From a virus, in the IMG/VR virus record IMGVR_UViG_3300025289_000028, positions 5,342 through 69,341 of that record: a stretch of 64,000 nt of DNA; one strand, 5' to 3'. This document shows, piece after piece, positions 3,116 through 63,409 of this stretch. The position numbers and the translations under genes are program-made. Numbering within the stretch: the stretch's first letter is position 1; every line of letters begins with the position of its first letter. The notes under the pieces are model-generated. The model ran no database searches. It saw nothing but the letters and a program-made list of their open reading frames with translations, and had not been told where the DNA came from.

Positions 3116-3757
3116 ATGGGATATTCAACAGATTTTAGTGGTAAACTTTTATTCACAAAAGAATTAAAAGCCAGCGAACTTGCTGAACTTAATAATTTTC
3201 TTGGCAAAGACTGCAGAGAACATCCGGAATGGGGAAATGCCAACCTTAGTTATATTGACTTGCAATTAACTAAAGATTTTTTTGGACTTGAATGGGATGG
3301 TTCCGAGAAAACATATGATTTGGTTGAAAAAACCAATCTTGTCATTGAAAATATGAGAATAAAATATCCAGACTTTGGATTAACCGGAAAATTATTAGCT
3401 CAAGGAGAAGATATAGGCGATGCGTGGATTCTTGCTATAGAAAATGGAAAAGCAAAACATAAAAAAATAGATTTAAGTCACAAGAAAAAGATAACTTGTC
3501 CACATTGTGAAGAAGAATTTTTCTTGGATGAAGAAAAAAAATATTCATTTTCATTTGTTTTCTCCGGTTTTCGAGATAAAATTTTGGAAAACAAAATAAG
3601 AGAAAAGGATTGGGAAGTAACAGAAAATATTTCCAAAAATACCACACATCTTGTAATGAAAGATGAAACTAAAATCAGCAGTAAAAAAACACAAGCTTTG
3701 AAAAATGGTTGTGTAATTTTATCAATAGAAAAACTTGCAAATTTTTTAAACAATTAA
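3116..3757 (+). CDS. hypothetical protein with C-terminal BRCT-like domain
   Basis: C-terminal ~80 aa (WEVTENISKNTTHLVMKDETKISSKKTQALKNGCVILSIEKLANFL) fits the BRCT pattern as seen in NAD-ligase C-termini. Confidence 0.5.
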   Translation: MGYSTDFSGKLLFTKELKASELAELNNFLGKDCREHPEWGNANLSYIDLQLTKDFFGLEWDGSEKTYDLVEKTNLVIENMRIKYPDFGLTGKLLAQGEDIGDAWILAIENGKAKHKKIDLSHKKKITCPHCEEEFFLDEEKKYSFSFVFSGFRDKILENKIREKDWEVTENISKNTTHLVMKDETKISSKKTQALKNGCVILSIEKLANFLNN

Positions 3758-3760
3758 ACA

Positions 3761-4237
3761 ATGGGAATAGACATCAATATTCATATCGGGCCATATATGG
3801 TCACAAAAAGCAATAAGGAGATTCAAAAAGAATGCACTGTCAATACTTGTTTGAATACGGATTGTGAAACACATAAAGAAAATCAAGTAGTGCACAGTAA
3901 GTTTTGCGCCAACTGCGGTTATTCAATTGGTAAAAAGAAATATATTGAAATTGAAAAAATAACTCCTTATTCATTGTTAGAAGATGAATTTTTAGATGAG
4001 CTACATTGTGCATATGATTATGAAAATATAGAAATATATATTTCCAATCAATGCTCTCCATTCGATAGAGAATTTGACTCAGATAGATTCTTTGAAATTG
4101 ATTTGCAAAAGGCTGATTCCCAAAAAGAAATAGACTGGTTTAAAGAAAGATTTAAAAAAATAATTTCATGTTTTGAACTTGAATTTGGAAAAGATTCTAT
4201 TGAATTCAAATGGGGAATAATAAAGTGGTTTTCTTAA
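3761..4237 (+). CDS. hypothetical protein (158 aa) with Cys cluster (CLNTDCETH...CANCGYS)
   Basis: ORF in packed array; probable Zn-ribbon. Confidence 0.5.
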   Translation: MGIDINIHIGPYMVTKSNKEIQKECTVNTCLNTDCETHKENQVVHSKFCANCGYSIGKKKYIEIEKITPYSLLEDEFLDELHCAYDYENIEIYISNQCSPFDREFDSDRFFEIDLQKADSQKEIDWFKERFKKIISCFELEFGKDSIEFKWGIIKWFS

Positions 4238-4247
4238 CTCGCAAAAA

Positions 4248-4625
4248 ATGGAAAAAGAGATAAAATTTAAAGTATGGGATACTAAACAAAATATATTTTT
4301 AGAGGAAGTTCCTTTTGTGGAATCTTGGATTGGTAATGATTGTTGGGACGACGCAGAAGATGCAAGTCCGTATGATTGGACAACAGCACCAACGCACAAT
4401 GGGAGATTAATCTGGCTCCAATTCATAAATTCAACTGACACGAACGGAAAAGAAGTTTATGATGGTGATATTTTAGAAGCTCCATCTGGAAATAAATTTA
4501 TTGTAAAATGGTACGACGAAGAAATGAGATGGGTAATGTTTTCAAAAGACACTTGGTATAATATGAATATGAAATTGCACAAAGTTATTGGAAATATTTT
4601 TGAAAATCCTGAACTAATTAGTTAA
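4248..4625 (+). CDS. hypothetical protein (125 aa)
   Basis: ORF in packed array. Confidence 0.5.
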   Translation: MEKEIKFKVWDTKQNIFLEEVPFVESWIGNDCWDDAEDASPYDWTTAPTHNGRLIWLQFINSTDTNGKEVYDGDILEAPSGNKFIVKWYDEEMRWVMFSKDTWYNMNMKLHKVIGNIFENPELIS

Positions 4626-4626
4626 T

Positions 4627-5088
4627 ATGGAAGCACAAGAAAAATTAGAAACAGTACTCAACCACATTCAAAACGTACAAAGGAACTGTTATAAATTAGG
4701 ATTAAAGCTAATTAAGTTAGGTGAGATAGAACTTGGAAGAAATTTAATCGCCAATGGACAAATACATGATAATAGCAAACTTAAAGGCATTGAGTTCGAT
4801 CATTTATTTTATGACGACCCTATGTTACCTGATGTTATAAAACATCACAGTTCCACGAATCCTCATCATCCGGAATATTGGTCAAAAATACAATCTATGC
4901 CTGAGCTTTATTTGATCGAGCTTGTTTGTGATTGTACCGGTAGGTCTGCAGAATTTGGTTCTGACATACGTATTTGGTTTCATGAAGAAGCAACAAAAAA
5001 ATATAATTTTTCAATGGATGATGAAGTTGGGAAAAAAATAATTTATTATCTCGACTTATTATTAGATAAACCTTTTAAAAAAAAATAA
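4627..5088 (+). CDS. hypothetical protein (153 aa), His-rich (possible metal-dependent hydrolase)
   Basis: ORF in packed array; HD..H..HHP motifs. Weak. Confidence 0.45.
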   Translation: MEAQEKLETVLNHIQNVQRNCYKLGLKLIKLGEIELGRNLIANGQIHDNSKLKGIEFDHLFYDDPMLPDVIKHHSSTNPHHPEYWSKIQSMPELYLIELVCDCTGRSAEFGSDIRIWFHEEATKKYNFSMDDEVGKKIIYYLDLLLDKPFKKK

Positions 5089-5320: not shown

Positions 5321-5530
5321 ATGACAGACTACAGAAATTTATCAGACTGGGCAAAAGCCAAAGTAGATAAAACAATTGCCGAAGAAATTGAGCCCGGACC
5401 TCGCGAAAATAAACACAATGGTTTTAAATGGAATGAACCAGAATATACACTTAACAGAGTTCATAATGGTGATTATTGTTCAGAGTGCTGGATGATTTAC
5501 TATAACTGTTTATGCTCACATGATAACTAA
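5321..5530 (+). CDS. hypothetical protein (69 aa)
   Basis: ORF in packed array. Confidence 0.5.
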   Translation: MTDYRNLSDWAKAKVDKTIAEEIEPGPRENKHNGFKWNEPEYTLNRVHNGDYCSECWMIYYNCLCSHDN

Positions 5531-8988: not shown

Positions 8989-9497
8989 ACTACCTTAAGT
9001 GTAAAGATTATTTTATTTTCAAGTTCAGATTTTATGCTGATAAAAGGATATTGGATAAATGGCATAGAGATGGTGGAGGAGTCCCAAAACAACATTGTGA
9101 TAGAGCTGTTGCGAGCTGTAATTTTTTATTGGCTTTAGTGAAAAAAATTACTGGCAAAAAACAGGAATATTGGTTTTCAGAATACTTATTTGAGCCATAC
9201 GATTGTATGATAGAAGAAATACAAGAAACTCATGGAATTTATAGGTTTTTGCTTTCGGATGGGTATTATACTTTTTTTATTCCAATACGTCATACTGAAA
9301 TTATTGAATGGATTAAACCGAAAATAAAATTCCCTCATAAAATAATCAAAAAAACAAGTGTTGGATTTATCAATCACAATGAAGATTGTTCTTTTCACAG
9401 AAGTTTGTCCGCACAAAGAACAAAAGACTTTAAACAAAAAATATTAATTGCAGAAAGCACAAGAAAGGTATTGTTCGAAAAATGTAATAATTGGTAA
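8985..9497 (+). CDS. hypothetical protein (170 aa); C-terminal ...TRKVLFEKCNNW*
   Basis: ATGA overlap with the upstream gene. Confidence 0.55.
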   Translation: MNYLKCKDYFIFKFRFYADKRILDKWHRDGGGVPKQHCDRAVASCNFLLALVKKITGKKQEYWFSEYLFEPYDCMIEEIQETHGIYRFLLSDGYYTFFIPIRHTEIIEWIKPKIKFPHKIIKKTSVGFINHNEDCSFHRSLSAQRTKDFKQKILIAESTRKVLFEKCNNW

Positions 9498-11850: not shown

Positions 11851-12333
11851 ATGAGCAAGCAAAAGAAATCATCCTTAAAAACAAAAAGAGTTTTATTTGA
11901 TACACAATACGATATGTGCGATATGATTTATAGAAAACTATCAGAATTGATGTTATCGGTAAATAAATTAGAAATAATAATAAAGCACGAAAAATTTGGT
12001 AATTTTAAATTACTTATAAATGAAAGTGAAAGTGAAAAAATTCAATTTTATACAATCACAGAAAAAAATATTCTCATTAAAAATATTGGTTATGTACCTT
12101 TAAATAACATATCTCTAGAACAATTAGAAGACCCATTTATATATTTTATATGCGGAGAAATTAAATTCATAAATTCAAGACCAGAAATTTACTCTGAATG
12201 GTTTGAACAAATTAAATGCACAATGCAAGAATTGTTGGATGAAGAAAAAAAATACGAAGAATTAAGAAGCAAAATAGAAGAACTTCCAATATTTTCACCA
12301 ACTCGAGAAGTATTAATAGAAAAAAATAATTAA
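11851..12333 (+). CDS. hypothetical protein (160 aa); C-terminal ...FSPTREVLIEKNN*
   Basis: ORF in packed array. Confidence 0.55.
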   Translation: MSKQKKSSLKTKRVLFDTQYDMCDMIYRKLSELMLSVNKLEIIIKHEKFGNFKLLINESESEKIQFYTITEKNILIKNIGYVPLNNISLEQLEDPFIYFICGEIKFINSRPEIYSEWFEQIKCTMQELLDEEKKYEELRSKIEELPIFSPTREVLIEKNN

Positions 12334-19541: not shown

Positions 19542-20018
19542 ATGGAATTTAGCAAAAAATATCGTCACATAGGAAATAGTTACGCAGGTGTGCCCAGACA
19601 TTGGAAACCAGTAGTAGAGAAACACTTGGTAAGAATAGAAAAAGTAATGTGGAAACAGTGGTGGATGCCGCGATTTATTATGAGAGCCATCCATTTTTTG
19701 GCCACCGGAGGCTCCGTTGTCCGTATTAAATTTTGGTGGGCATACAACCTAAGAAACAAACTCACAGGCAGTCAAATAATACAAGATATTAAAGAAAAAT
19801 ATGGCTCATTAAGAATTTATGGATACTTTGGTAAAGAAATTGATGATATAATTACAGAAGCAGTAAAAGAATGTGCTAACACTTGTATGGATTGTGGAAG
19901 CAATAATAATGTTGAGTATATAGATAATGGTTGGGTTTATGTATTGTGTGCAGAATGTAGAGATAGACCTGAGTTTTCACCAACAAGAGAAGTTTTAATA
20001 GAAAAAAATGGTAATTAA
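19542..20018 (+). CDS. hypothetical protein with C-terminal Zn-ribbon; C-terminal ...FSPTREVLIEKNGN*
   Basis: CMDCGS...CAECRD cluster. Confidence 0.55.
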   Translation: MEFSKKYRHIGNSYAGVPRHWKPVVEKHLVRIEKVMWKQWWMPRFIMRAIHFLATGGSVVRIKFWWAYNLRNKLTGSQIIQDIKEKYGSLRIYGYFGKEIDDIITEAVKECANTCMDCGSNNNVEYIDNGWVYVLCAECRDRPEFSPTREVLIEKNGN

Positions 20019-20453: not shown

Positions 20454-20786
20454 ATGGATATAAAAAAAACATATGACAGTTTAAAAAATGAAATTTTTGA
20501 ACTTGAAACTAAGCGTTCAGAATTACAAAATAAAAAAAACAAATTCGTAAGAGATAATTTTGATAAAATGTTTGTTGGTAAATTTTGGAAAAATGACAAC
20601 GTTAACGCAATAACCTATTCGTACTGCAAAAAATCCGGAATTGAAGAAGATGCGTTTGATGATTATTGCAATTATGGCATTATTGATTATTTTAAAATAG
20701 ATAATACAAAATGTGCATCAAAATTTTATAAAGATCATAAAGAATTCTTAGATAATGCACTCTATGTTTTTTTAAAAAAGAAATAA
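20454..20786 (+). CDS. hypothetical protein (110 aa in frame 0). A putative -1 frameshift at A_AAA_AAG (20774-20780) would extend it to 20881 with the tail ...KKEITREEFEKAQEKFRNQFFEFTKIERIVLIEKI*
   Basis: Start at ATG 20454 (MDIKKTYDSL), after the upstream stop at 20448. A slippery heptamer lies 4 nt before the frame-0 TAA. The -1 frame is open for 34 codons beyond the slip site and ends with the recurrent motif. Confidence 0.55.
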   Translation: MDIKKTYDSLKNEIFELETKRSELQNKKNKFVRDNFDKMFVGKFWKNDNVNAITYSYCKKSGIEEDAFDDYCNYGIIDYFKIDNTKCASKFYKDHKEFLDNALYVFLKKK

Positions 20787-20909
20787 CAAGAGAAGAATTT
20801 GAAAAAGCTCAAGAAAAATTCAGAAATCAGTTTTTTGAATTTACTAAGATTGAGAGAATTGTATTAATCGAGAAGATTTAAACATTTTAACATGTTTTTC
20901 GTTTAAATA

Positions 20910-21591: not shown

Positions 21592-21882
21592 ATGCTTAAA
21601 TTAAGATGTATAAAAAACTATATCACATGCGGAACAGGTTTTTCAAAAACAGCTTTTGAAATAGGTACAAGCTATACAATACATTCAATTGAAGAATATA
21701 CTATTTCTATATTAAATAATAACGGTCAACCTTATATTTTCGCATTAGAATATGATCCAGAAGGTTTTTGTTGTTGGGTAGATGACTTCTTTGAATCAAA
21801 TAAACGCTTCGTTATTTTTGAGAAGAAATGTAGAACATCTAATTTAAAAAAGTTTATAAAATTATTCGATTTAAATGATTAA
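21592..21882 (+). CDS. hypothetical protein, paralog family C (1 of 3); ...NKRFVIFEK
   Basis: Three tandem paralogs share M(L/I)KL(R/E)CIK...NPANKRFVI(F/I)EK....FNFK. Confidence 0.6.
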   Translation: MLKLRCIKNYITCGTGFSKTAFEIGTSYTIHSIEEYTISILNNNGQPYIFALEYDPEGFCCWVDDFFESNKRFVIFEKKCRTSNLKKFIKLFDLND

Positions 21883-22144
21883 ATTAGAGTGTATAAAACG
21901 GCTTTATGAAGTAGATTATAAATCTTTTACATTGGGTAAAAATTATAAAATCACATATCAAGATGGACATTTTATTGAACTTTTAGATAATAGAGGAAGA
22001 GAAATAAGTTTTAGCAAAATTTCCGGCTCTTATTTTCATTATGTATTTAAATATTTTAATCCGAATCCAGCTAATAAAAGATTTGTTATTTTCGAAAAAA
22101 CAAGTGAACCATTTAATTTTAAATTAAAGCAACTAAATGATTAA
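21875..22144 (+). CDS. hypothetical protein, paralog family C (2 of 3)
   Basis: Tandem paralog. Confidence 0.6.
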   Translation: MIKLECIKRLYEVDYKSFTLGKNYKITYQDGHFIELLDNRGREISFSKISGSYFHYVFKYFNPNPANKRFVIFEKTSEPFNFKLKQLND

Positions 22145-22445
22145 ATTAAGATGTATAAAAACTCTTTACAAATCAACGTATAAAGGAAATGCTTTTACGA
22201 GAAATAAATTATATGAAATCAGGTCAGACAAAAATCATGATTTTATACACATCTTAGATAATCAAGGACGGTTTTTTGGTTTTGAAAAACCACAACTCCG
22301 ATTTACCAAACAATACTATAAACAAGCCGGAATGTATCGCATACAAGATTATTTTAGTCCAAATCCGGCAAATAAACGTTTTGTTATTATTGAAAAAATA
22401 AATGAACCATTTAATTTCAAAGAAAAAGATTATGAAAATAAATAG
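22137..22445 (+). CDS. hypothetical protein, paralog family C (3 of 3)
   Basis: Tandem paralog. Confidence 0.6.
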   Translation: MIKLRCIKTLYKSTYKGNAFTRNKLYEIRSDKNHDFIHILDNQGRFFGFEKPQLRFTKQYYKQAGMYRIQDYFSPNPANKRFVIIEKINEPFNFKEKDYENK

Positions 22446-25742: not shown

Positions 25743-26021
25743 ATGGACATAGCATGCGGTGATGTAGTTACTATTAAAGATGAAATATTCAGTGAATCTG
25801 GAAGAATAATTTTTCATAAAGGAACAAAAGTACAAATAAGCGAAGTTATTAAAAAAGAAGCATTTTGGGGGAAAATGTCCGGCGTATATTATCCCGAAGA
25901 AATAACAGGACTAAAAATTATTGGAATTTCTGGTGAATGGTCATTAGAAACCTTTAAGGAAACTTCAAGGAATCCAATAATAACAAGAGAAGTTTTAGTT
26001 GAAAAATTCAAATTTTATTAA
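25743..26021 (+). CDS. hypothetical protein (92 aa); C-terminal ...ITREVLVEKFKFY*
   Basis: ORF. Confidence 0.5.
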   Translation: MDIACGDVVTIKDEIFSESGRIIFHKGTKVQISEVIKKEAFWGKMSGVYYPEEITGLKIIGISGEWSLETFKETSRNPIITREVLVEKFKFY

Positions 26022-26023
26022 AA

Positions 26024-26542
26024 ATGGATTCAGAAACTGTAAAAAGATTAATTTTAGAAAAATTGTTTAATGAATTTATTCCTAAATTAATTGGTTATTA
26101 TAGACTTTTATCACCTGAAAAAGATCAATGGAATCCAAATTTTTTTCTTCTTAAAGAAAATATACGTTTGAATACCGATGGATATGAAATTTATTTTTAT
26201 GTTGCAATAAATAAGGATGGATTTTTTGAACGTTGTACTGTTTCCAAAATAAGAGTAAGGGCGTCCCTTGGTCACATAATGTTAGAACATTTACAAAGAG
26301 TAGAACCAGAAACATTAGATTTTAATTTTGACAACAAAAATACAGCAATAAATGAGCTTTGTAGAATACTTAATAATTCTTATGTTTTAAAACTTGGAAT
26401 GTGTGCTTTACAGGAGATTGAAAATCATGAAGTACCAGAAAATTGTAGCGTTGGAGCTATAAAGAAAATTTTAGGTCTTAGTCCAAATATGGATTTAAAT
26501 AATATAGAAACAAGAAAAGTATTATTAGAAAAAATAAAATAA
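26024..26542 (+). CDS. hypothetical protein (172 aa); C-terminal ...ETRKVLLEKIK*
   Basis: ORF. Confidence 0.55.
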   Translation: MDSETVKRLILEKLFNEFIPKLIGYYRLLSPEKDQWNPNFFLLKENIRLNTDGYEIYFYVAINKDGFFERCTVSKIRVRASLGHIMLEHLQRVEPETLDFNFDNKNTAINELCRILNNSYVLKLGMCALQEIENHEVPENCSVGAIKKILGLSPNMDLNNIETRKVLLEKIK

Positions 26543-36051: not shown

Positions 36052-36234
36052 ATGAAAAATTCTCGTTTTAAACGCATTTGGAACGATTTCTGGTACGAGT
36101 GGCATTATCCAAGAACGATAATAATAGGTGGTGGTCCGCAAGGTTATAAAACCTTTAGAAAACAACGATTGTTTAATGTGATAATAGCGTTAATAGTTAT
36201 AACAATTAGTATTTTAACTTTTTTTAAAAAATAA
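36052..36234 (+). CDS. small membrane protein (60 aa)
   Basis: Start moved to the in-frame ATG 36052 (MKNSRFKRIW). C-terminal TM helix. Confidence 0.4.
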   Translation: MKNSRFKRIWNDFWYEWHYPRTIIIGGGPQGYKTFRKQRLFNVIIALIVITISILTFFKK

Positions 36235-36237
36235 CAT

Positions 36238-36906
36238 ATGAAAAACAAGAACTTTTTATTATCATTTATTAGCAAATCAAAACTATTTTATTTTGATGAA
36301 AATGAACTTCAATTTAAAAGAACACATGGATTTTTTACTATGATTGTTTTATTTTGCTTAATTATAGCATTCGTATCTGGGGGTATTATTACAAAAGAAA
36401 CGGAGCTTGAAATGATGAATAAATATAGTGATAAAGAAAAAATGTTGATAATAAAAAATGGAGATAAATTTAGTGAAGAAAAATTAATACTTTTTCTTAA
36501 TGAGCTTAATGTGCCATTTCCAGAGATAATTTATTCTCAAGCAAGATTAGAAAGTGGAAACTTCAGCAGTAAATTGTTTTTTGAAAATAACAACATTTTT
36601 GGAATGAGGACAGTAAGTTCACGAGCTACACTACAGATAAAAACGCAAAACGGTTACGGTGTTTATAATTCCTGGAGACAATCTGTTGTTGATTATGTTT
36701 TATTTTCTTGTTGTTACCTGAGAGATTTAAAAACAAAAGAACAATATTATGATTATATCGAAAAAAATTATTCAGAAACAGTAGGATATTCAGATAGAGT
36801 TAAAAGCATTGAAAAAGAATATTTTAAAAAAATAAAAGGGCTAACCGGGAATAGTTATGAAATATATTCAAAACCGGTTGTTGGTGATTCGGTTGTTAAA
36901 AAATAA
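36238..36906 (+). CDS. peptidoglycan hydrolase, glucosaminidase (FlgJ-like) domain with N-terminal TM anchor. Candidate endolysin or virion lysin
   Basis: 'IYSQARLESGNFSS...NNNIFGMR' matches the glucosaminidase motif (aqAalESgwG.S...NNlFGik). Confidence 0.65.
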   Translation: MKNKNFLLSFISKSKLFYFDENELQFKRTHGFFTMIVLFCLIIAFVSGGIITKETELEMMNKYSDKEKMLIIKNGDKFSEEKLILFLNELNVPFPEIIYSQARLESGNFSSKLFFENNNIFGMRTVSSRATLQIKTQNGYGVYNSWRQSVVDYVLFSCCYLRDLKTKEQYYDYIEKNYSETVGYSDRVKSIEKEYFKKIKGLTGNSYEIYSKPVVGDSVVKK

Positions 36907-37181
36907 TGAAAAAAATTAATCACGATGAAATTTCAGTACTAAAACGTATAGTACTTATAGAAAAAAGTTATTATTTTAAAAAAGGTGATACCGTTAGAAT
37001 AAATACTAAAATTATAGAGCCTTATTATTATTGGCGTGAATTTAAAGAAAGTTTAGGGACTGTATTTTCCTGTGATAAAGAATGGAACGAAGTAACAATA
37101 TTATGGTTTACTACAAATGATAGAGTAGGATTACCGTCATTATGGGATTCTTTTAATTTAATTAGAGTTGATAAGGATTGA
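36906..37181 (+). CDS. hypothetical protein (91 aa); N-terminal ...LKRIVLIEK motif
   Basis: Last gene of the plus-strand array. Confidence 0.5.
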   Translation: MKKINHDEISVLKRIVLIEKSYYFKKGDTVRINTKIIEPYYYWREFKESLGTVFSCDKEWNEVTILWFTTNDRVGLPSLWDSFNLIRVDKD

Positions 37182-38285
37182 CTTTAAATAATCAGTCAAT
37201 ATAGTCTCAATGTTCTTAAAGTCCCAGTAAGGAATTCTTAATAATGGAATGTTATTGTTTTTGCAGTATTCGTTTTTTATTTGGTCGTTTAGTTGCCTTG
37301 CTTTAAATGTTTTTTCACCACCAAAGTATTTAAAAGCTTTAAAATGTTGAGCTCCATCAAATTCTACACAAGTATTATAATCTGGTAAATAAAAATCGAA
37401 AGGTAATTTAAAAACATTTTTACAATCATCAAAAGTTTTTTGATATGTAAATATTATATTTTTTTCTTCTAAAATTTTAGTAATTTTAATTTCTCCTTTT
37501 GAAAAATTTGAACACTTTGGACAACCATTTCCAAATAAATGCATTGCTGGCCTTTGTTTGAAAATACCATGTTTATTACAAATTATATCTACTTTTGTTT
37601 GGTTATTTACATATTTTACATTATCATAATTATAAGTATTTCCATGAACTTCAAAAGATTTTGCCAAAAATATTTCTTTAGTTCCAACATATCCACCACT
37701 ACATATGTCACATCCGCGTCCTCTTAAATGGTCTTTGGCTAATTGACTGAACTTTCCATGTTTATTACAAATTATTGTTACTTTATTATCATTTTTTGTG
37801 TATAAAACTTCAGAATAATCGTATTTATTATTATGTTTTTCATTAGATTTTTTTATAAAATCTTCTTTTGCATATTGATACGTTCCTGAACAATAAATAC
37901 AACCCCTTCCACTTAAATGACTATCAGGTCTTTGATTAAATTCTCCATGCTCTGGACAAATTATAATAATTGGTTGTTTATTATTTTTATATACCACTTT
38001 TGAATAATCGTATTTATTATCATGAACTTCATTTGATTTAATAATAAATGATTCTAAAGTATGTTTACTTGGTAATGTTCTTTCTCCTTCGTACATACAT
38101 TTCTTACAATTATATCCTTTCATGTGATTTCTTGGAGATTGTAAAAATTCGCCATGTTTCTCACATATAATTGTGGATTTTACTGAGGAATTAACATATT
38201 CAAATTTTGAATAATCGTACCTTTCTCCATGAATTTGTTTTGCATTAAAAATAAATTTTTCAATACTTATAGCTTTCCCACTCAT
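37158..38285 (-). CDS. Homing-endonuclease-like protein with 5 tandem Zn-ribbon modules and a C-terminal Vsr-like PD-(D/E)xK nuclease domain
   Basis: Repeats follow YDYSK(V/F)EY.N...K..IIC..HG.F.Q.P..H..G.GC..C. C-terminal 'LPFDFYLPDYNTCVEFDGAQHF' resembles the Vsr 'FVDGCFWH' core. Paralog of 52833..53987. Confidence 0.65.
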   Translation of the reverse strand: MSGKAISIEKFIFNAKQIHGERYDYSKFEYVNSSVKSTIICEKHGEFLQSPRNHMKGYNCKKCMYEGERTLPSKHTLESFIIKSNEVHDNKYDYSKVVYKNNKQPIIIICPEHGEFNQRPDSHLSGRGCIYCSGTYQYAKEDFIKKSNEKHNNKYDYSEVLYTKNDNKVTIICNKHGKFSQLAKDHLRGRGCDICSGGYVGTKEIFLAKSFEVHGNTYNYDNVKYVNNQTKVDIICNKHGIFKQRPAMHLFGNGCPKCSNFSKGEIKITKILEEKNIIFTYQKTFDDCKNVFKLPFDFYLPDYNTCVEFDGAQHFKAFKYFGGEKTFKARQLNDQIKNEYCKNNNIPLLRIPYWDFKNIETILTDYLKSILINSN

Positions 38286-52832: not shown

Positions 52833-53987
52833 TTACTCAATACAGTTGAATTCTTTCTCTAAAATTTCATTTATATTTTTCAAATTTAAATATGAAATTC
52901 TAATAAGTTTTATATTGTTATTTAAACAATATTTATTTTTTATGTTATCAGTTCTTTGTATATCCAAAAAATTTTTTTCTCCTCCAAATTTTTTGACTGA
53001 TTCAAAATGCTGTCTCCCATCAAATTCTATACAAGTATTGTATTTTGGTAAATAAAAATCAAATGGTAATTTATTTGATATTCCTATGCAATCATTAAAT
53101 TTATGTTGATGTATAAATTCGATGTTATTCTTTTTTAAAAATTCAATTATACCTTTTTCTCCCTTTGATATTTTTGAAAAATTACATTTTTTACATCCAT
53201 ATCCATTCAAATGTGAGCTTGGAGTTATTTGAAAATCTCCATGTAATGGACAAATTACTATTACCTTAGTTTTGTTTTGAACGTAGTTAACTTTTGAATA
53301 ATCGTATTTTGGTTCACATGTTTTTTCATTTATGTGTATAATTTTCGATTTTTCAATAAAATATTCAGAAGTATTAGCTCTTTTTAAGGAACTTTCTTCA
53401 AATCCGCAAAAAGGACATTGGTGTCCAGCTAAATGTTTATCTGGTGATTGCTCAAAAACACCATGTTTCTTACAAATTATCTTAACTTTAATTATAGAAT
53501 TAACATATTCAACTAACTCATAATTATATGTATATCCATAAATAATTATAGATTTTTCAATAAACTCTATCGTGTTTCTTAATGCGGTTCCGCCACACTT
53601 ACCACATCCATGCCCACCCAAATGACTTGCTGGAATTTGTTCAAAAACTCCATGATTATTACATATTATTTTAACTTTTGTATTATTGTTAAAATATTCT
53701 ACTAATGAATAATCATATATATTACTATGAACTTTGTTAGACTTTTCAATAAATTCTTCGGTTGTTAATTTTTTGAGTCCAGAACATTCAACACATCCAC
53801 AACCAGATAAATGATCATTTGGCGTTTGCTCAAAAACACCATGTTCTTTACAAATTATTTTAATCTTAGTTTTGCTATTTTTATATTCAACTAAACTGTA
53901 ATCATATTTTGATTCATTAGTTATTCTGTTTACATGTATAATTTTAGCTCTTTCAATAAACTCTTCTGTTGTTAATTTTTTTGACAT
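52833..53987 (-). CDS. Homing-endonuclease-like protein with tandem Zn-ribbon modules and a C-terminal Vsr-like PD-(D/E)xK domain (paralog of 37158..38285)
   Basis: Same repeat architecture. C-terminal 'LPFDFYLPKYNTCIEFDGRQHF...FGGEKNF...YCLNNNIKLIRI'. Confidence 0.65.
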   Translation of the reverse strand: MSKKLTTEEFIERAKIIHVNRITNESKYDYSLVEYKNSKTKIKIICKEHGVFEQTPNDHLSGCGCVECSGLKKLTTEEFIEKSNKVHSNIYDYSLVEYFNNNTKVKIICNNHGVFEQIPASHLGGHGCGKCGGTALRNTIEFIEKSIIIYGYTYNYELVEYVNSIIKVKIICKKHGVFEQSPDKHLAGHQCPFCGFEESSLKRANTSEYFIEKSKIIHINEKTCEPKYDYSKVNYVQNKTKVIVICPLHGDFQITPSSHLNGYGCKKCNFSKISKGEKGIIEFLKKNNIEFIHQHKFNDCIGISNKLPFDFYLPKYNTCIEFDGRQHFESVKKFGGEKNFLDIQRTDNIKNKYCLNNNIKLIRISYLNLKNINEILEKEFNCIE

Positions 53988-54853: not shown

Positions 54854-55081
54854 TTACTTATATTTCTCAATTAAAACTACTCTTTCAAATGTGTTTAAAC
54901 AAATAGGACATCGTTTACAAAATGTTACATTTCCAGAAACACCATAATCAACACTTTCAATTGTGGAAACTTTTAAAACATTTGGATGTTTCCTACAATA
55001 AGGCTCGGAATGAAATTCTTTAAAAAACGATGCAAACATTGAATTATGTTCCTTTTTTAATTGTTCTAATAATTCAGACAT
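54854..55081 (-). CDS. small Zn-ribbon protein (75 aa); C-terminal ...FERVVLIEKYK*
   Basis: CRKH...CKRCPICLN cluster. Confidence 0.5.
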   Translation of the reverse strand: MSELLEQLKKEHNSMFASFFKEFHSEPYCRKHPNVLKVSTIESVDYGVSGNVTFCKRCPICLNTFERVVLIEKYK

Positions 55082-60467: not shown

Positions 60468-61610
60468 TTAATGCAATTCATCATATTCTCTAATGCGAGA
60501 ATAAACACCTTTTAAATGTTGTGTTTTTTCACTATCCGGCTCAGCTGATTTAACATTCTTAAGTTCTGTAATAGATTTCCTTTCTTCTTCTGTTAATGTC
60601 TTTGGAACAAAAATATTTACATAAACCATTTGATCGCCTCTTTGAGAAGGATTATTTATATTAGGAATTCCTTTACCTTTTAAACGTAGGATTTTGCCAG
60701 ACTCTGTTCCTGGCTCTATTTTGACTTTAACGTTTCCATCAACAGTATTTATTTCTAAAGAATCATTCCCAATCACAGCATCATAATAACTAATAAAAAC
60801 ATCAGTTAAAATATTATTGCCTTCTCTTTTAAAAATAGGATGTTCAATCTCTGTTATTTCAATAATAAGACTTCCGTTATTCCCTCCGCCTCTTGCTTCG
60901 TTTCCAACGTTATTAATGTTTAAATTTATTCCTTCTACTGCACCGGCTGGAATATCAAATTCTACTTCATCACTATTCGAAATCATCCCTTGTCCTTTAC
61001 AGGAATTGCATTTTTCTTTAATTTCTTTTCCTTCTCCACCACAATGCTGACAAGTGTATTGTTGAATCATCATTCCCATTTGCGTATTCTGTCTTATTGT
61101 AACAATACCAGTACCATCACATACACTGCATTTTACTATCGATTCTTTATTTTTAGCACCAGTTCCAGAACAGTCTGGACAATTTATTTCTCTTTGTAAT
61201 TTTACTTTTTTATGTGCACCTGTAATTAATTCATGAATAGTTAATGAAATTCTTATTTTTAAATCTCCACCTCTTCTAGTTTTTGTTTGTTGAGCATGTC
61301 TACTACTACCACCTCTAAACCCAAATGATTCAGCATGCCTTCTAAATAATTCATCCGCCATACTGTGAGGATTAAATCCAAAACCACCATCATTAAACAT
61401 GCCATCGTTTTCATATTTAGCTTTCTTTTCTGGGTTGGATAAAATATCATATGCGTTAGAAATTTTTTTAAAAGTATTTTCATCCCCACCCTTATCTGGG
61501 TGATGTTTTTTTACTAATTTTCTATAAGATTGTTTTATTTCTTCTTGAGATGCTGTTTTGTCTACTTCAAGAATATTATAGAGACTTTCTTTTTCAGACA
61601 TATTTTCCAA
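60468..61610 (-). CDS. dnaJ: molecular chaperone DnaJ (type I Hsp40)
   Basis: J-domain with the 'HHPDKGGD' HPD motif, a Gly/Phe region, four CxxCxGxG zinc-finger repeats and a C-terminal domain. Confidence 0.9.
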   Translation of the reverse strand: MENMSEKESLYNILEVDKTASQEEIKQSYRKLVKKHHPDKGGDENTFKKISNAYDILSNPEKKAKYENDGMFNDGGFGFNPHSMADELFRRHAESFGFRGGSSRHAQQTKTRRGGDLKIRISLTIHELITGAHKKVKLQREINCPDCSGTGAKNKESIVKCSVCDGTGIVTIRQNTQMGMMIQQYTCQHCGGEGKEIKEKCNSCKGQGMISNSDEVEFDIPAGAVEGINLNINNVGNEARGGGNNGSLIIEITEIEHPIFKREGNNILTDVFISYYDAVIGNDSLEINTVDGNVKVKIEPGTESGKILRLKGKGIPNINNPSQRGDQMVYVNIFVPKTLTEEERKSITELKNVKSAEPDSEKTQHLKGVYSRIREYDELH

Positions 61611-62520
61611 TTTTTCTATTTAAATAATATATTTCATTTTTTTTAACCCACTCTATTAAACTTAATACTGGTTTGTTAGATATAGCAAAAGAATATATTT
61701 TACCTTTTTGATGTATTTTTTGATTCACATCAACAAATAATGTTGTTTTTAATGTTTCTTTAATCCATTCAAGCATTTTTAATGTGCCTAAAAATGTTAT
61801 TCTTAAATTATTATTAATTTTATATATTGAACCATCCCCATCTAATAACCCAATTATAAATGCTATTTTTTGATTTGAATTTTTTATTGTTGGAGGCACT
61901 GCTGTAAATGTTTTTTTATTAGTAATTAAAAAATTTATTTTTAATTTATTTATTATATTTTTTGAATATATGTCTATAGTTGCTGATTTATGTTCAGTAC
62001 CAAAAGAGTTGTTATCTCTAATGAATATTGGAGCATTAGAATTTATTGTTTTTTTAAAAACTTCTAAATGCTCAACATCTTTACTACTTAATTTTATACT
62101 TAATAAAGAATTAATAGGTTTTACACATCCATCAGCTGATATAAAACCAGCCCAATAACAATTTTCAAGTGAAAAATCATCAAAAAAATTATGATTAACA
62201 TTGTATTTATATTTTTTATAAACAAATCTAGCTTCATTATTTCTCTTCAATCCTAAAAATGTTGCTCTATTTAGAAGAGAACTCCTAGTTCTGTTTTTAA
62301 ATAATTCAATTAATAATCTTGTTGGTTTAAGTGGAAAATTTTCACGTAATAAATCATCCTCATCTTTTGACCATTTAATAGTGCATATACCTAATTTATA
62401 TAATTTAGATTTAACTACACTTATTTTTTTTTCTAATTTTTCTGCTATTTCATTTAATGTGATTTTTTTTACATTTTCTATTAAAAAATCAATTTCTTTT
62501 TCTGTCCATTTCTTTCTCAT
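61594..62520 (-). CDS. LAGLIDADG-family homing-endonuclease-like protein with N-terminal HTH repeats
   Basis: 'AGFISADGCV' and 'IGLLDGDGSIY' are two LAGLIDADG motifs. The N-terminal 'WTEKEIDFLIENVKKITLNEIAEKL' and 'WSKDEDDLLRENF' form HTH/Myb-like repeats. Located between dnaJ and clpP. Confidence 0.7.
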   Translation of the reverse strand: MRKKWTEKEIDFLIENVKKITLNEIAEKLEKKISVVKSKLYKLGICTIKWSKDEDDLLRENFPLKPTRLLIELFKNRTRSSLLNRATFLGLKRNNEARFVYKKYKYNVNHNFFDDFSLENCYWAGFISADGCVKPINSLLSIKLSSKDVEHLEVFKKTINSNAPIFIRDNNSFGTEHKSATIDIYSKNIINKLKINFLITNKKTFTAVPPTIKNSNQKIAFIIGLLDGDGSIYKINNNLRITFLGTLKMLEWIKETLKTTLFVDVNQKIHQKGKIYSFAISNKPVLSLIEWVKKNEIYYLNRKIGKYV

Positions 62521-62604
62521 TTTTTATATTTAATAATAAATATGAAAAAAAAATAAATCTATTACGCTTTATCTAATTATTTAAATTTGTACTTAAAAAT
62601 ATTA

Positions 62605-62649
62605 ATTTTTTAAAAAGGTAAAACGGAATGTTGTATTATACAACACTCC
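62605..62649 (-). terminator. Probable terminator downstream of clpP
   Basis: Minus-strand hairpin GGAGUGUUGUAUA-AUACAACAUUCC (12-bp stem with 1 mismatch) followed by GUUUUACCUUUUUAAAAAA. Confidence 0.55.
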
Positions 62650-62686
62650 GCTTACTTGAGATTTGGTTATTTTTGCTCCCTACCTC

Positions 62687-63409
62687 TTATTTTCTTTTTA
62701 TTAGAACTTCGTCAATTAATCCTTCTCCAACTGCTTGCTCTGCTGAAACCCAATAATCTTTTTGACATTTATTGAATATTGTTTCATAATCCTGTCCTGT
62801 ATTTTTAGAAAGTTTTTCATACAATCTTTTTTCCATTATTTGACATTGTTCATAACTTACTTTTAAATCTTTCATTTTTCCTTCAAATCCAGATGCTAAT
62901 TCGTGCATCATTATTCTTGAACTTGGTAATGCATATCTTTTACCTTTCGTCCCACTTGATAAAAGCATTGTACCCATACTTGCAACAACTCCCATTCCAA
63001 CCGTTTTAATATCACACGAAACAAGCTCGAATGTGTCTAAAATTGCGCTTCCTGAGTCAATTTCCCCGCCCGGACTCATGATATAAAATGTAATATCTTT
63101 TTTACCTTCAGTCATTTCTAAAAACAATATTTGTGCTATTGCAATATTAGAAGTTTCAGTAGTTACCGGATGGCAAAAATAGATTATTCTATCTTTTAAA
63201 AGACGAGAATACACATCATATGATATTAATTGTCCAGAACTTGATTCTTCTATTACACTTGGAGATAGATTTTTAATAGAATGGTCAATTAATTTGTTGG
63301 TCGAACTGGAGATTAGCTTTTTATTTATGTTGGCGCTTTTTCCTGCTATTTCAAATTTTTCAATAATGTTTTGCATATTATATTTTTTAGTTTGTTTATG
63401 TGTTGACAA
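62687..63409 (-). CDS. clpP: ATP-dependent Clp protease proteolytic subunit with a ~60-aa N-terminal extension
   Basis: 'IMSPGGEIDSGSAILDTF...GVVASMGTMLLSSGTKGKRYALPSSRIMMHE' gives the ClpP Ser-His-Asp triad context. Confidence 0.85.
   Translation of the reverse strand: MSTHKQTKKYNMQNIIEKFEIAGKSANINKKLISSSTNKLIDHSIKNLSPSVIEESSSGQLISYDVYSRLLKDRIIYFCHPVTTETSNIAIAQILFLEMTEGKKDITFYIMSPGGEIDSGSAILDTFELVSCDIKTVGMGVVASMGTMLLSSGTKGKRYALPSSRIMMHELASGFEGKMKDLKVSYEQCQIMEKRLYEKLSKNTGQDYETIFNKCQKDYWVSAEQAVGEGLIDEVLIKRK

Follow-up and report, generated by a model that had tools for sequence, protein, structure and literature searches.

A split gene in a huge phage, probably left by a lineage-specific indel at a slippery homopolymer, and the terminal peptide motif that it carries

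Introduction

Does a slippery A_AAA_AAG heptamer just ahead of a stop codon, with an open −1 frame beyond it, mark a programmed ribosomal frameshift in a small phage gene, or is it the trace of a mutation in an AT-rich genome? The question is raised by the ORF at 20454-20786 of the window, by which we mean the whole 64,000-nucleotide stretch analysed here (positions 5,342 to 69,341 of IMG/VR record IMGVR_UViG_3300025289_000028); all features of the split gene lie on the plus strand. The initial annotation had proposed a canonical −1 frameshift of the dnaX/IS911 kind, giving access to a C-terminal extension that ends in a recurrent RxVLIEK motif. The window is 28-30% GC and tightly packed with small co-oriented genes, and its annotated products include type IA topoisomerase, DnaJ, PcfJ-like, SPFH, GIY-YIG, ClpP, DNA methylase, radical-SAM, LAGLIDADG and NADAR proteins. 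The target protein is found on contigs of up to 503 kb, its relatives on a 519-kb contig, and a T4-type portal is encoded by a more distant relative; the source is a huge phage of ~500 kb.

Reading frames at the junction

Counted from the ATG at 20454, the frame-0 codons at the junction read GTT TTT TTA AAA AAG AAA TAA, with the stop at 20784-20786. The resulting 110-aa protein (P0001) ends K-K-K-TAA, matches the profile of its homologues and corresponds to the N-terminal 77% of the family, whose members are usually 134-164 aa long. The codon count confirmed that A_AAA_AAG (20774-20780; dnaX/IS911 type) lies in X_XXY_YYZ phase near the frame-0 stop with a T7 run before it, as had been annotated, and revealed a second in-phase heptamer that had been overlooked, T_TTT_TTA (20768-20774; HIV-1 gag-pol type), which adjoins the first; a slip at either would give an identical product. 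Both are part of a T7A6 double homopolymer (20767-20779; T7 at 20767-20773, A6 at 20774-20779, then G at 20780), one of two tracts in the window in which at least six T are followed by at least six A. The other, also T7A6 (36219-36231), lies in a gap between listed ORFs, immediately upstream of a glucosaminidase gene (36238-36906).

The −1 frame opens at 20756, after a TAA at 20753-20755, and stays open to the TAA at 20879-20881, with no ATG, GTG or TTG within 20756-20878. As this frame opens at 20756 and frame 0 stops at 20784, any frame change, mutational or translational, is confined to the overlap at 20756-20783 in which both frames are open. Beyond a slip, the −1 segment comprises 33 codons plus TAA (20780-20881), encoding EITREEFEKAQEKFRNQFFEFTKIERIVLIEKI, and the expected run to a terminal RxVLIEK was borne out: the segment closes with ERIVLIEKI and the stop, the RIVLIEK codons of the clade-wide tag occupying 20855-20875 with one residue to follow. 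The full-length product after a slip would read ...ALYVFLKK-EITREEFEKAQEKFRNQFFEFTKIERIVLIEKI, a total of 109 + 33 = 142 aa. The gap after 20786 is 123 nt, within the top 5% of same-strand gaps in the window (median 2.5 nt); counting the tail as coding leaves 28 nt of it.

Homologue family and the coding status of the tail

A word-indexed search with the fused protein matched only the gene itself, and an exhaustive HMMER search with the same product across 1.8 billion representatives recovered 12 homologues of 134-164 aa, all from related huge phages. Every one of the 12 is an uninterrupted single ORF, and their alignment with the fused product (alignment A1) spans the junction and extends to residue 141. 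A family profile built from 11 homologues, with the window's own sequence left out, scored 69.9 bits (E 4e-23) against frame 0, covering positions 2 to about 100, and 43.6 bits (E 5e-15) against the −1 tail, where it covered positions 101-139. No part of the family is better conserved than the tail, which shows 45-61% identity to the homologues compared with 23-38% for the body and keeps every residue that is invariant in the family alignment (I111, E115, F130, L138, E140 and K141), with no decay seen. Three of these, L138, E140 and K141, lie in the terminal motif, which is therefore constrained, in line with the annotated claim that it is functionally important. Rather than a conserved frame-0 stop with a non-conserved −1 frame, the pattern in orthologues that the initial annotation had set against its own proposal, we found the opposite, a conserved tail. 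Judged by this homology, the −1 tail is genuine coding sequence that is accessible solely via a −1 frame change in 20756-20783, and the family appears to consist of small proteins, with no assigned function, of huge (~500 kb) AT-rich phages, typically encoded as one continuous ORF.

AlphaFold2 modelled the 142-aa product with a pLDDT of 86, including a confident helix at residues 113-131 (pLDDT 96 for the block 111-120); the last 11 residues (132-142), which bear the motif, were modelled as coil with a pLDDT of about 50-57. The conserved part of the −1 tail thus comprises a C-terminal helix and a C-terminal tag. Foldseek returned no match to this model in the PDB at E <= 0.001, PHROGs gave no family for the target protein, megablast and tblastn found no match among GenBank phages, and scans of IMG/VR with the target protein and with its 802-aa neighbour were likewise without a match.

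At the DNA level, neither the homopolymer nor a frame break was present at the junction in any of the seven homologues inspected. Six read TGT AAA GAA GAA ATA or similar, and the seventh, in locus L012, has TTT at the Cys position. P0006 is the positional orthologue, within the gene order NADAR, 126 aa, 165 aa, 156 aa and then the gene, and is in frame; no closer orthologue of the target turned up on contigs whose copy of the neighbouring gene is more closely related (74-79% identity). The frame-change interval 20756-20783 includes T7A6, and homology does not place the change within it to the nucleotide. In the −1 frame a Cys codon (TGT, 20765-20767) lies five codons before EIT, and the family's conserved Cys aligns three codons before EIT; since the two are only two residues apart, the original frame change could lie upstream of T7A6.

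In the 519-kb relative (L012, 10001-10841) the target family has two overlapping paralogues in tandem, P0014 and the gene after it, whose C-terminal sequence identifies it as the counterpart of P0010; neither has a frame break, and each carries the tag at its end. The related phage contig L021 has an insertion at 3200-4997 (−) of an IS605-type OrfB/TnpB gene, with a Cas12f-like TNB domain, together with a resolvase gene, and lacks the target gene at the syntenic position.

Tests for a programmed −1 frameshift

Two features expected of a programmed site were found: a slippery heptamer in zero-frame phase inside the frame overlap, here present twice (20768-20774 and 20774-20780), and a conserved −1 polypeptide without a start codon of its own (E 5e-15; 45-61% identity). 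A third, conservation of the arrangement in homologous genes, was not, as all 12 homologues are single ORFs. The usual distance from heptamer to stimulatory structure is given as 5-9 nt in PMC5009743, and the initial annotation had suggested that a downstream stem-loop or pseudoknot be sought. Folding of nested secondary structure predicted none 5-9 nt 3' of the heptamer (z-scores −0.7, −2.0 and −1.2, not significant), and an 11-bp A-U-rich hairpin at 20816-20842 is too distant (35 nt 3' of the heptamer) and too weak for a canonical stimulator. An Rfam scan detected no frameshift elements. On the 5' side, no GGAG, AGGA or GAGG occurs in the upstream sequence TCTTAGATAATGCACTCTATGT, and Shine-Dalgarno sequences are found at 4% of this genome's gene starts against 21% of control positions; with neither the upstream region nor the genome's genes carrying such a sequence, a 5' stimulator of the dnaX/IS911 kind is implausible.

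The heptamer itself is commonplace and not enriched over chance. The window's 118 genes contain 14 A_AAA_AAG and 40 A_AAA_AAA heptamers in phase, 54 in all, and more than 300 of the general form X_XXY_YYZ, so the heptamer alone carries no weight. Moreover, the loss of one nucleotide from either T8A6 (V-F-F-K-K-E) or T7A7 (V-F-L-K-K-E) reproduces the observed in-phase sequence to the letter; because a 1-nt deletion in the T/A tract creates the heptamer automatically, its presence cannot tell a programmed site from a mutated one. Counting −1 frames that stay open past stops was also considered as evidence and rejected as uninformative, since the −1 frame past a stop is often taken up by a downstream gene. 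With 12 unsplit homologues, absent stimulators and a commonplace heptamer, the proposal of a canonical −1 frameshift was not supported.

The shift-prone character of A_AAA_AAG also depends on the host. According to PMC5009743, it is highly shifty only where a single tRNA-Lys reads both codons, the situation in about half of bacteria, and in E. coli U_UUU_UUA is far less shift-prone than A_AAA_AAG.

Population data

Ten loci assembled from different samples (JGI, ENA/MGnify and author assemblies) are 100% identical over 20454-20896, and the 110-aa split product is encoded on at least 24 contigs from at least 10 samples. The 90% cluster of the target protein holds members of 110, 126 and 99 aa only, and the in-frame products expected of an A7 or T8 allele, with either start codon, were absent from a collection of 15 billion proteins. 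DNA pattern scans for other homopolymer lengths gave no match in metagenome, viral and genome collections, but as this phage is missing from all of these, the scans carry no information. With no more than 1 SNP per 5 kb the population is clonal, so that fixation of the split allele says nothing on selection or long-term maintenance; together with the undecayed tail, this clonality is compatible with a recent event. One short author-assembled scaffold (L007) diverges completely past window position 20896, probably as a chimeric or misjoined contig end.

Explanations of the split

The probable explanation, in our view (probability of about 0.65), is that this lineage recently acquired a 1-nt indel within or adjacent to the T/A tract, for which slippage on U_UUU_UUA_AAA_AAG may compensate at a low level. 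One nucleotide would have been lost in or next to the homopolymer that is now T7A6, both the direction (a deletion) and the recency of the event being inferred. The first 109 codons would have remained in frame 0, while the last 33, encoding the alpha-helix and the RxVLIEK tag, were left in frame −1. Standard translation would then give a truncated 110-aa protein that lacks the family's most conserved part and is probably non-functional, and the 142-aa protein would arise only by unassisted −1 slippage, either of the ribosome on U_UUU_UUA_AAA_AAG or of RNA polymerase on T7/A6. Such slippage might operate at about 1 percent, as a compensatory leak rather than a tuned recoding signal. Body and tail show homology in different frames and are continuous in the homologues, the pattern expected of an indel mutation. 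From sequence comparison, then, the best reading is that the split is a derived indel, as opposed to a programmed frameshift that is conserved and has its own stimulators.

Several observations count against a plain indel. The tail has no stops over 33 codons, at 28% GC, for which an estimate from the base frequencies of the coding strand gives about a 4% chance of an open frame; a tail that is undecayed and retains all invariant residues looks equally like a selected recoding site. The tandem in-phase heptamers one codon before the frame-0 stop form a slippage-favouring layout, and the split allele is the sole allele observed.

These same observations are the strength of the principal rival, selected programmed recoding, under which the tandem tract is maintained and a fixed share of ribosomes or transcripts produces the tagged 142-aa protein beside the untagged 110-aa protein. 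Placement of two in-phase heptamers one codon from the stop, an intact tail that is the most conserved part of the family, and the exclusive occurrence of the split allele on at least 24 contigs would all fit such a site, as would the consideration that any new recoding site has to start as a leaky indel. Against it, the arrangement occurs in none of the 12 homologues, the locus has no 3' structure at canonical spacing, 5' Shine-Dalgarno-like sequence or Rfam element, and a clonal population gives no time depth. Further, the short form lacks the confident helix predicted by AlphaFold2 at residues 113-131, which makes an independently functional short isoform doubtful, and no other motif gene, in the window or in related loci, gets its motif via a frameshift. 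The shiftiness of A_AAA_AAG is in addition tied, in PMC5009743, to the single tRNA-Lys of about half of bacteria, a group that may not include the host of this phage. We consider selected recoding unlikely, albeit the strongest of the competitors. A bolder reading, a little more doubtful again, takes the T7A6 tract for a recoding or phase-variable switch under selection, one that would control what share of this accessory protein carries the C-terminal helix and the tag. A ~500-kb phage would then dose a tagged protein by −1 slippage, and the locus would be a newborn recoding site just after its founding indel.

A phase-variable (contingency) locus, in which replication slippage toggles between OFF (T7A6) and ON (one base more), would account for a double homopolymer exactly at the frame change and for the undecayed tail. 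Runs of 6-7 are nevertheless short for high-rate switching, the same tract length recurs in all 10 loci and at least 24 contigs, and no ON allele exists in the 15-billion-protein collection, leaving this explanation improbable.

Least probable of all, and very unlikely, is the homopolymer sequencing indel that the initial annotation had allowed for, in which a true T8A6 or T7A7 genome would encode an ordinary in-frame ORF: the frame-change interval does contain two homopolymers and all homologues are in frame, yet 10 loci from different samples and pipelines agree over 20454-20896, the 110-aa product recurs on at least 24 contigs with the in-frame product absent from the collection, and, among 395 A or T runs of six or more in the window (250 A-runs and 145 T-runs), this is the sole motif-bearing frame that requires a frame change. 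The identity of independently derived sequences therefore makes an assembly error unlikely and indicates that the disruption is present in the genome.

The value of the frameshift result is mainly corrective: where a genome is AT-rich, even a textbook slippery heptamer cannot be taken as evidence for recoding. Should leak-through occur, the locus would be a natural example of the birth of a recoding site, the homopolymer indel having been slippery from its first day.

Comparison with known systems

The likeness to E. coli dnaX (tau/gamma) lies in the identical in-phase A_AAA_AAG and in bacterial-type translation. However, dnaX requires an upstream Shine-Dalgarno-like element and a close downstream stem-loop for its ~50% frameshifting, and the phage gene has neither; the dnaX shift leads to a shorter product, whereas that of the phage gene would lead to a longer one; and dnaX frameshifting is conserved among relatives, whereas the phage split is unique in comparison with 12 homologues. 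The OrfA-OrfAB arrangement of IS911 and the IS3 family is closer in outcome, as A_AAA_AAG lies near the stop of frame 0 and a start-less downstream −1 segment is joined on by the shift. IS3-family sites nonetheless carry 5' Shine-Dalgarno and 3' structural stimulators and are conserved family-wide, unlike the phage site, and both IS products are functional while the phage short form is missing part of the fold. With HIV-1 gag-pol the gene shares the same U_UUU_UUA, in phase at 20768-20774, but the former is a eukaryotic system with a 3' stem-loop.

Slippage also adds a C-terminal extension in the tail-assembly chaperones G/GT of lambda and most tailed phages, where a few percent of slippage occurs, for which little or no RNA structure can suffice, and the extension carries an interaction module. 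The G/GT position is conserved across very diverse phages, in contrast to the split described here, a one-off within an in-frame family and outside any tail module.

Compensatory low-level frameshifting at homopolymer-run indels is an established category (PMC5009743), with G-run mutants of the herpesvirus thymidine kinase as an example of such 'corrective' frameshifting. The phage gene would resemble these cases in having a probable indel in a mononucleotide run, an unshifted product that would be useless, possible low-level slippage on that run to restore some full-length protein, and no dedicated stimulators. Transcriptional slippage likewise rescues poly(A) frameshifts in endosymbionts; strong slippage by RNA polymerase calls for runs of 9 or more, and the phage runs, T7 and A6, fall short of this.

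RxVLIEK, a candidate terminal peptide tag

We consider the context of the tag to matter more than the frameshift. The pattern [RKH]x[VIL][LIVF][IFLV]EK has 26 instances in 25 of the window's 118 genes, compared with an average of 0.49 and a maximum of 4 across 2000 shuffles (for example at 1454-1474, 1687-1707, 9462-9482, 12304-12324, 19986-20006, 25986-26006, 26513-26533 and 54863-54883(−)). Its consensus is (P-x-T)-R-[KE]-V-L-[IFV]-E-K, with the core R-x-[VI]-[LI]-[IFVL]-E-K. Fifteen instances fall in the last 25 residues of their proteins (eight of these 2-4 residues before the stop), a further nine in the first 35 residues and two in the interior, so that ~20% of genes carry the tag at one end or the other. 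Pfam detected a domain in none of 20 motif-bearing proteins scanned, and the proteins that did match Pfam are all motif-free.

Two simpler accounts of the motif were rejected. As a DNA or RNA signal, such as a promoter or recombination site, it would not be expected to concentrate its information at codon positions 1 and 2, with near zero at position 3, and AGA/CGN Arg codons and TTR/CTN Leu codons interchange within it. Nor do the motif proteins form one paralogous superfamily: when the motif is masked, only 4 motif-bearing pairs are similar and the proteins fall into about 20 unrelated families. Two of these unrelated families (11851-12333 and 19542-20018) share the last 11 residues, FSPTREVLIEK.

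The family of 19542-20018 offers a view of how the tag is distributed. Its nearer members end ...CxxCRDxPxFSPTREVLIEK, whereas its distant members end directly after the zinc-ribbon Cys pair (CxxC) and are tag-less (alignment A3), and no motif occurs in the 17 kb of L026 or the 15.7 kb of L027, each of which carries a tag-less member. Related huge-phage loci carry 0.2-0.9 motifs per kb, among them L012, L013, L016, L018 and L020. Given these distant homologues and genomes without the motif, the tag is an appended, clade-specific module, and a second AlphaFold2 model once more rendered it as a low-confidence terminal appendage. RxVLIEK thus looks like a clade-specific terminal peptide tag that is conserved at the protein rather than the DNA level.

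Whatever the status of the frameshift, such a tag may direct about a fifth of the clade's function-unassigned proteins to a common reader, and it offers a tangible way into what the 'dark' proteome of huge phages does. A literature search on the motif string found no description of it. By analogy with the T4 capsid-targeting sequence and the cargo peptides of encapsulins, one idea is that it might serve as a capsid-loading or ejection-protein signal. Another is a site for a maturation protease cutting after L-x-E, by analogy with T4 gp21, which recognizes L-x-E and then cleaves. A third is that it could act as a degron for a phage-encoded ClpP.

A proteostasis cluster on the minus strand (60468-63409) encodes DnaJ at full length (60468-61610), a protein with a LAGLIDADG domain (61594-62520) and a bona fide ClpP (62687-63409; Pfam E 9e-57), and is a possible candidate for the reader or protease of the tag.

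Elsewhere in the window, three tandem paralogues (21592-22445; 96, 89 and 102 aa) start MxKL(R/E)CIK, with successive genes overlapping by 8 nt, and each has NKRFVI(F/I)EK 14-18 residues from its end.

Genome and host context

Gene leaders in this genome contain little G and are rich in A at −14 to −9, and 74% of them have A at −3. Leaders of this kind, A-rich and without Shine-Dalgarno sequences, are what we take to be the pattern of Bacteroidota-type hosts. Relatives of the phage encode RNase H and also TonB-dependent receptors (L012 10876-12906, L015 1697-3751 and L016 3926-5956), an NMN transporter and IF3; the last three, taken with the leader pattern, point to a Bacteroidota-type host.

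Neither the window nor the loci of the tag-bearing clade yielded a tRNA. The tag-less distant relative L027 encodes a tRNA with anticodon CTA (2156-2230 (−)), which reads TAG and suggests stop-codon reassignment or suppression in that phage. The window also holds two large paralogues (37158-38285(−) and 52833-53987(−)) with 47% identity over 380 aa and a DUF4379 treble-clef zinc-finger domain, which may be homing-endonuclease-like.
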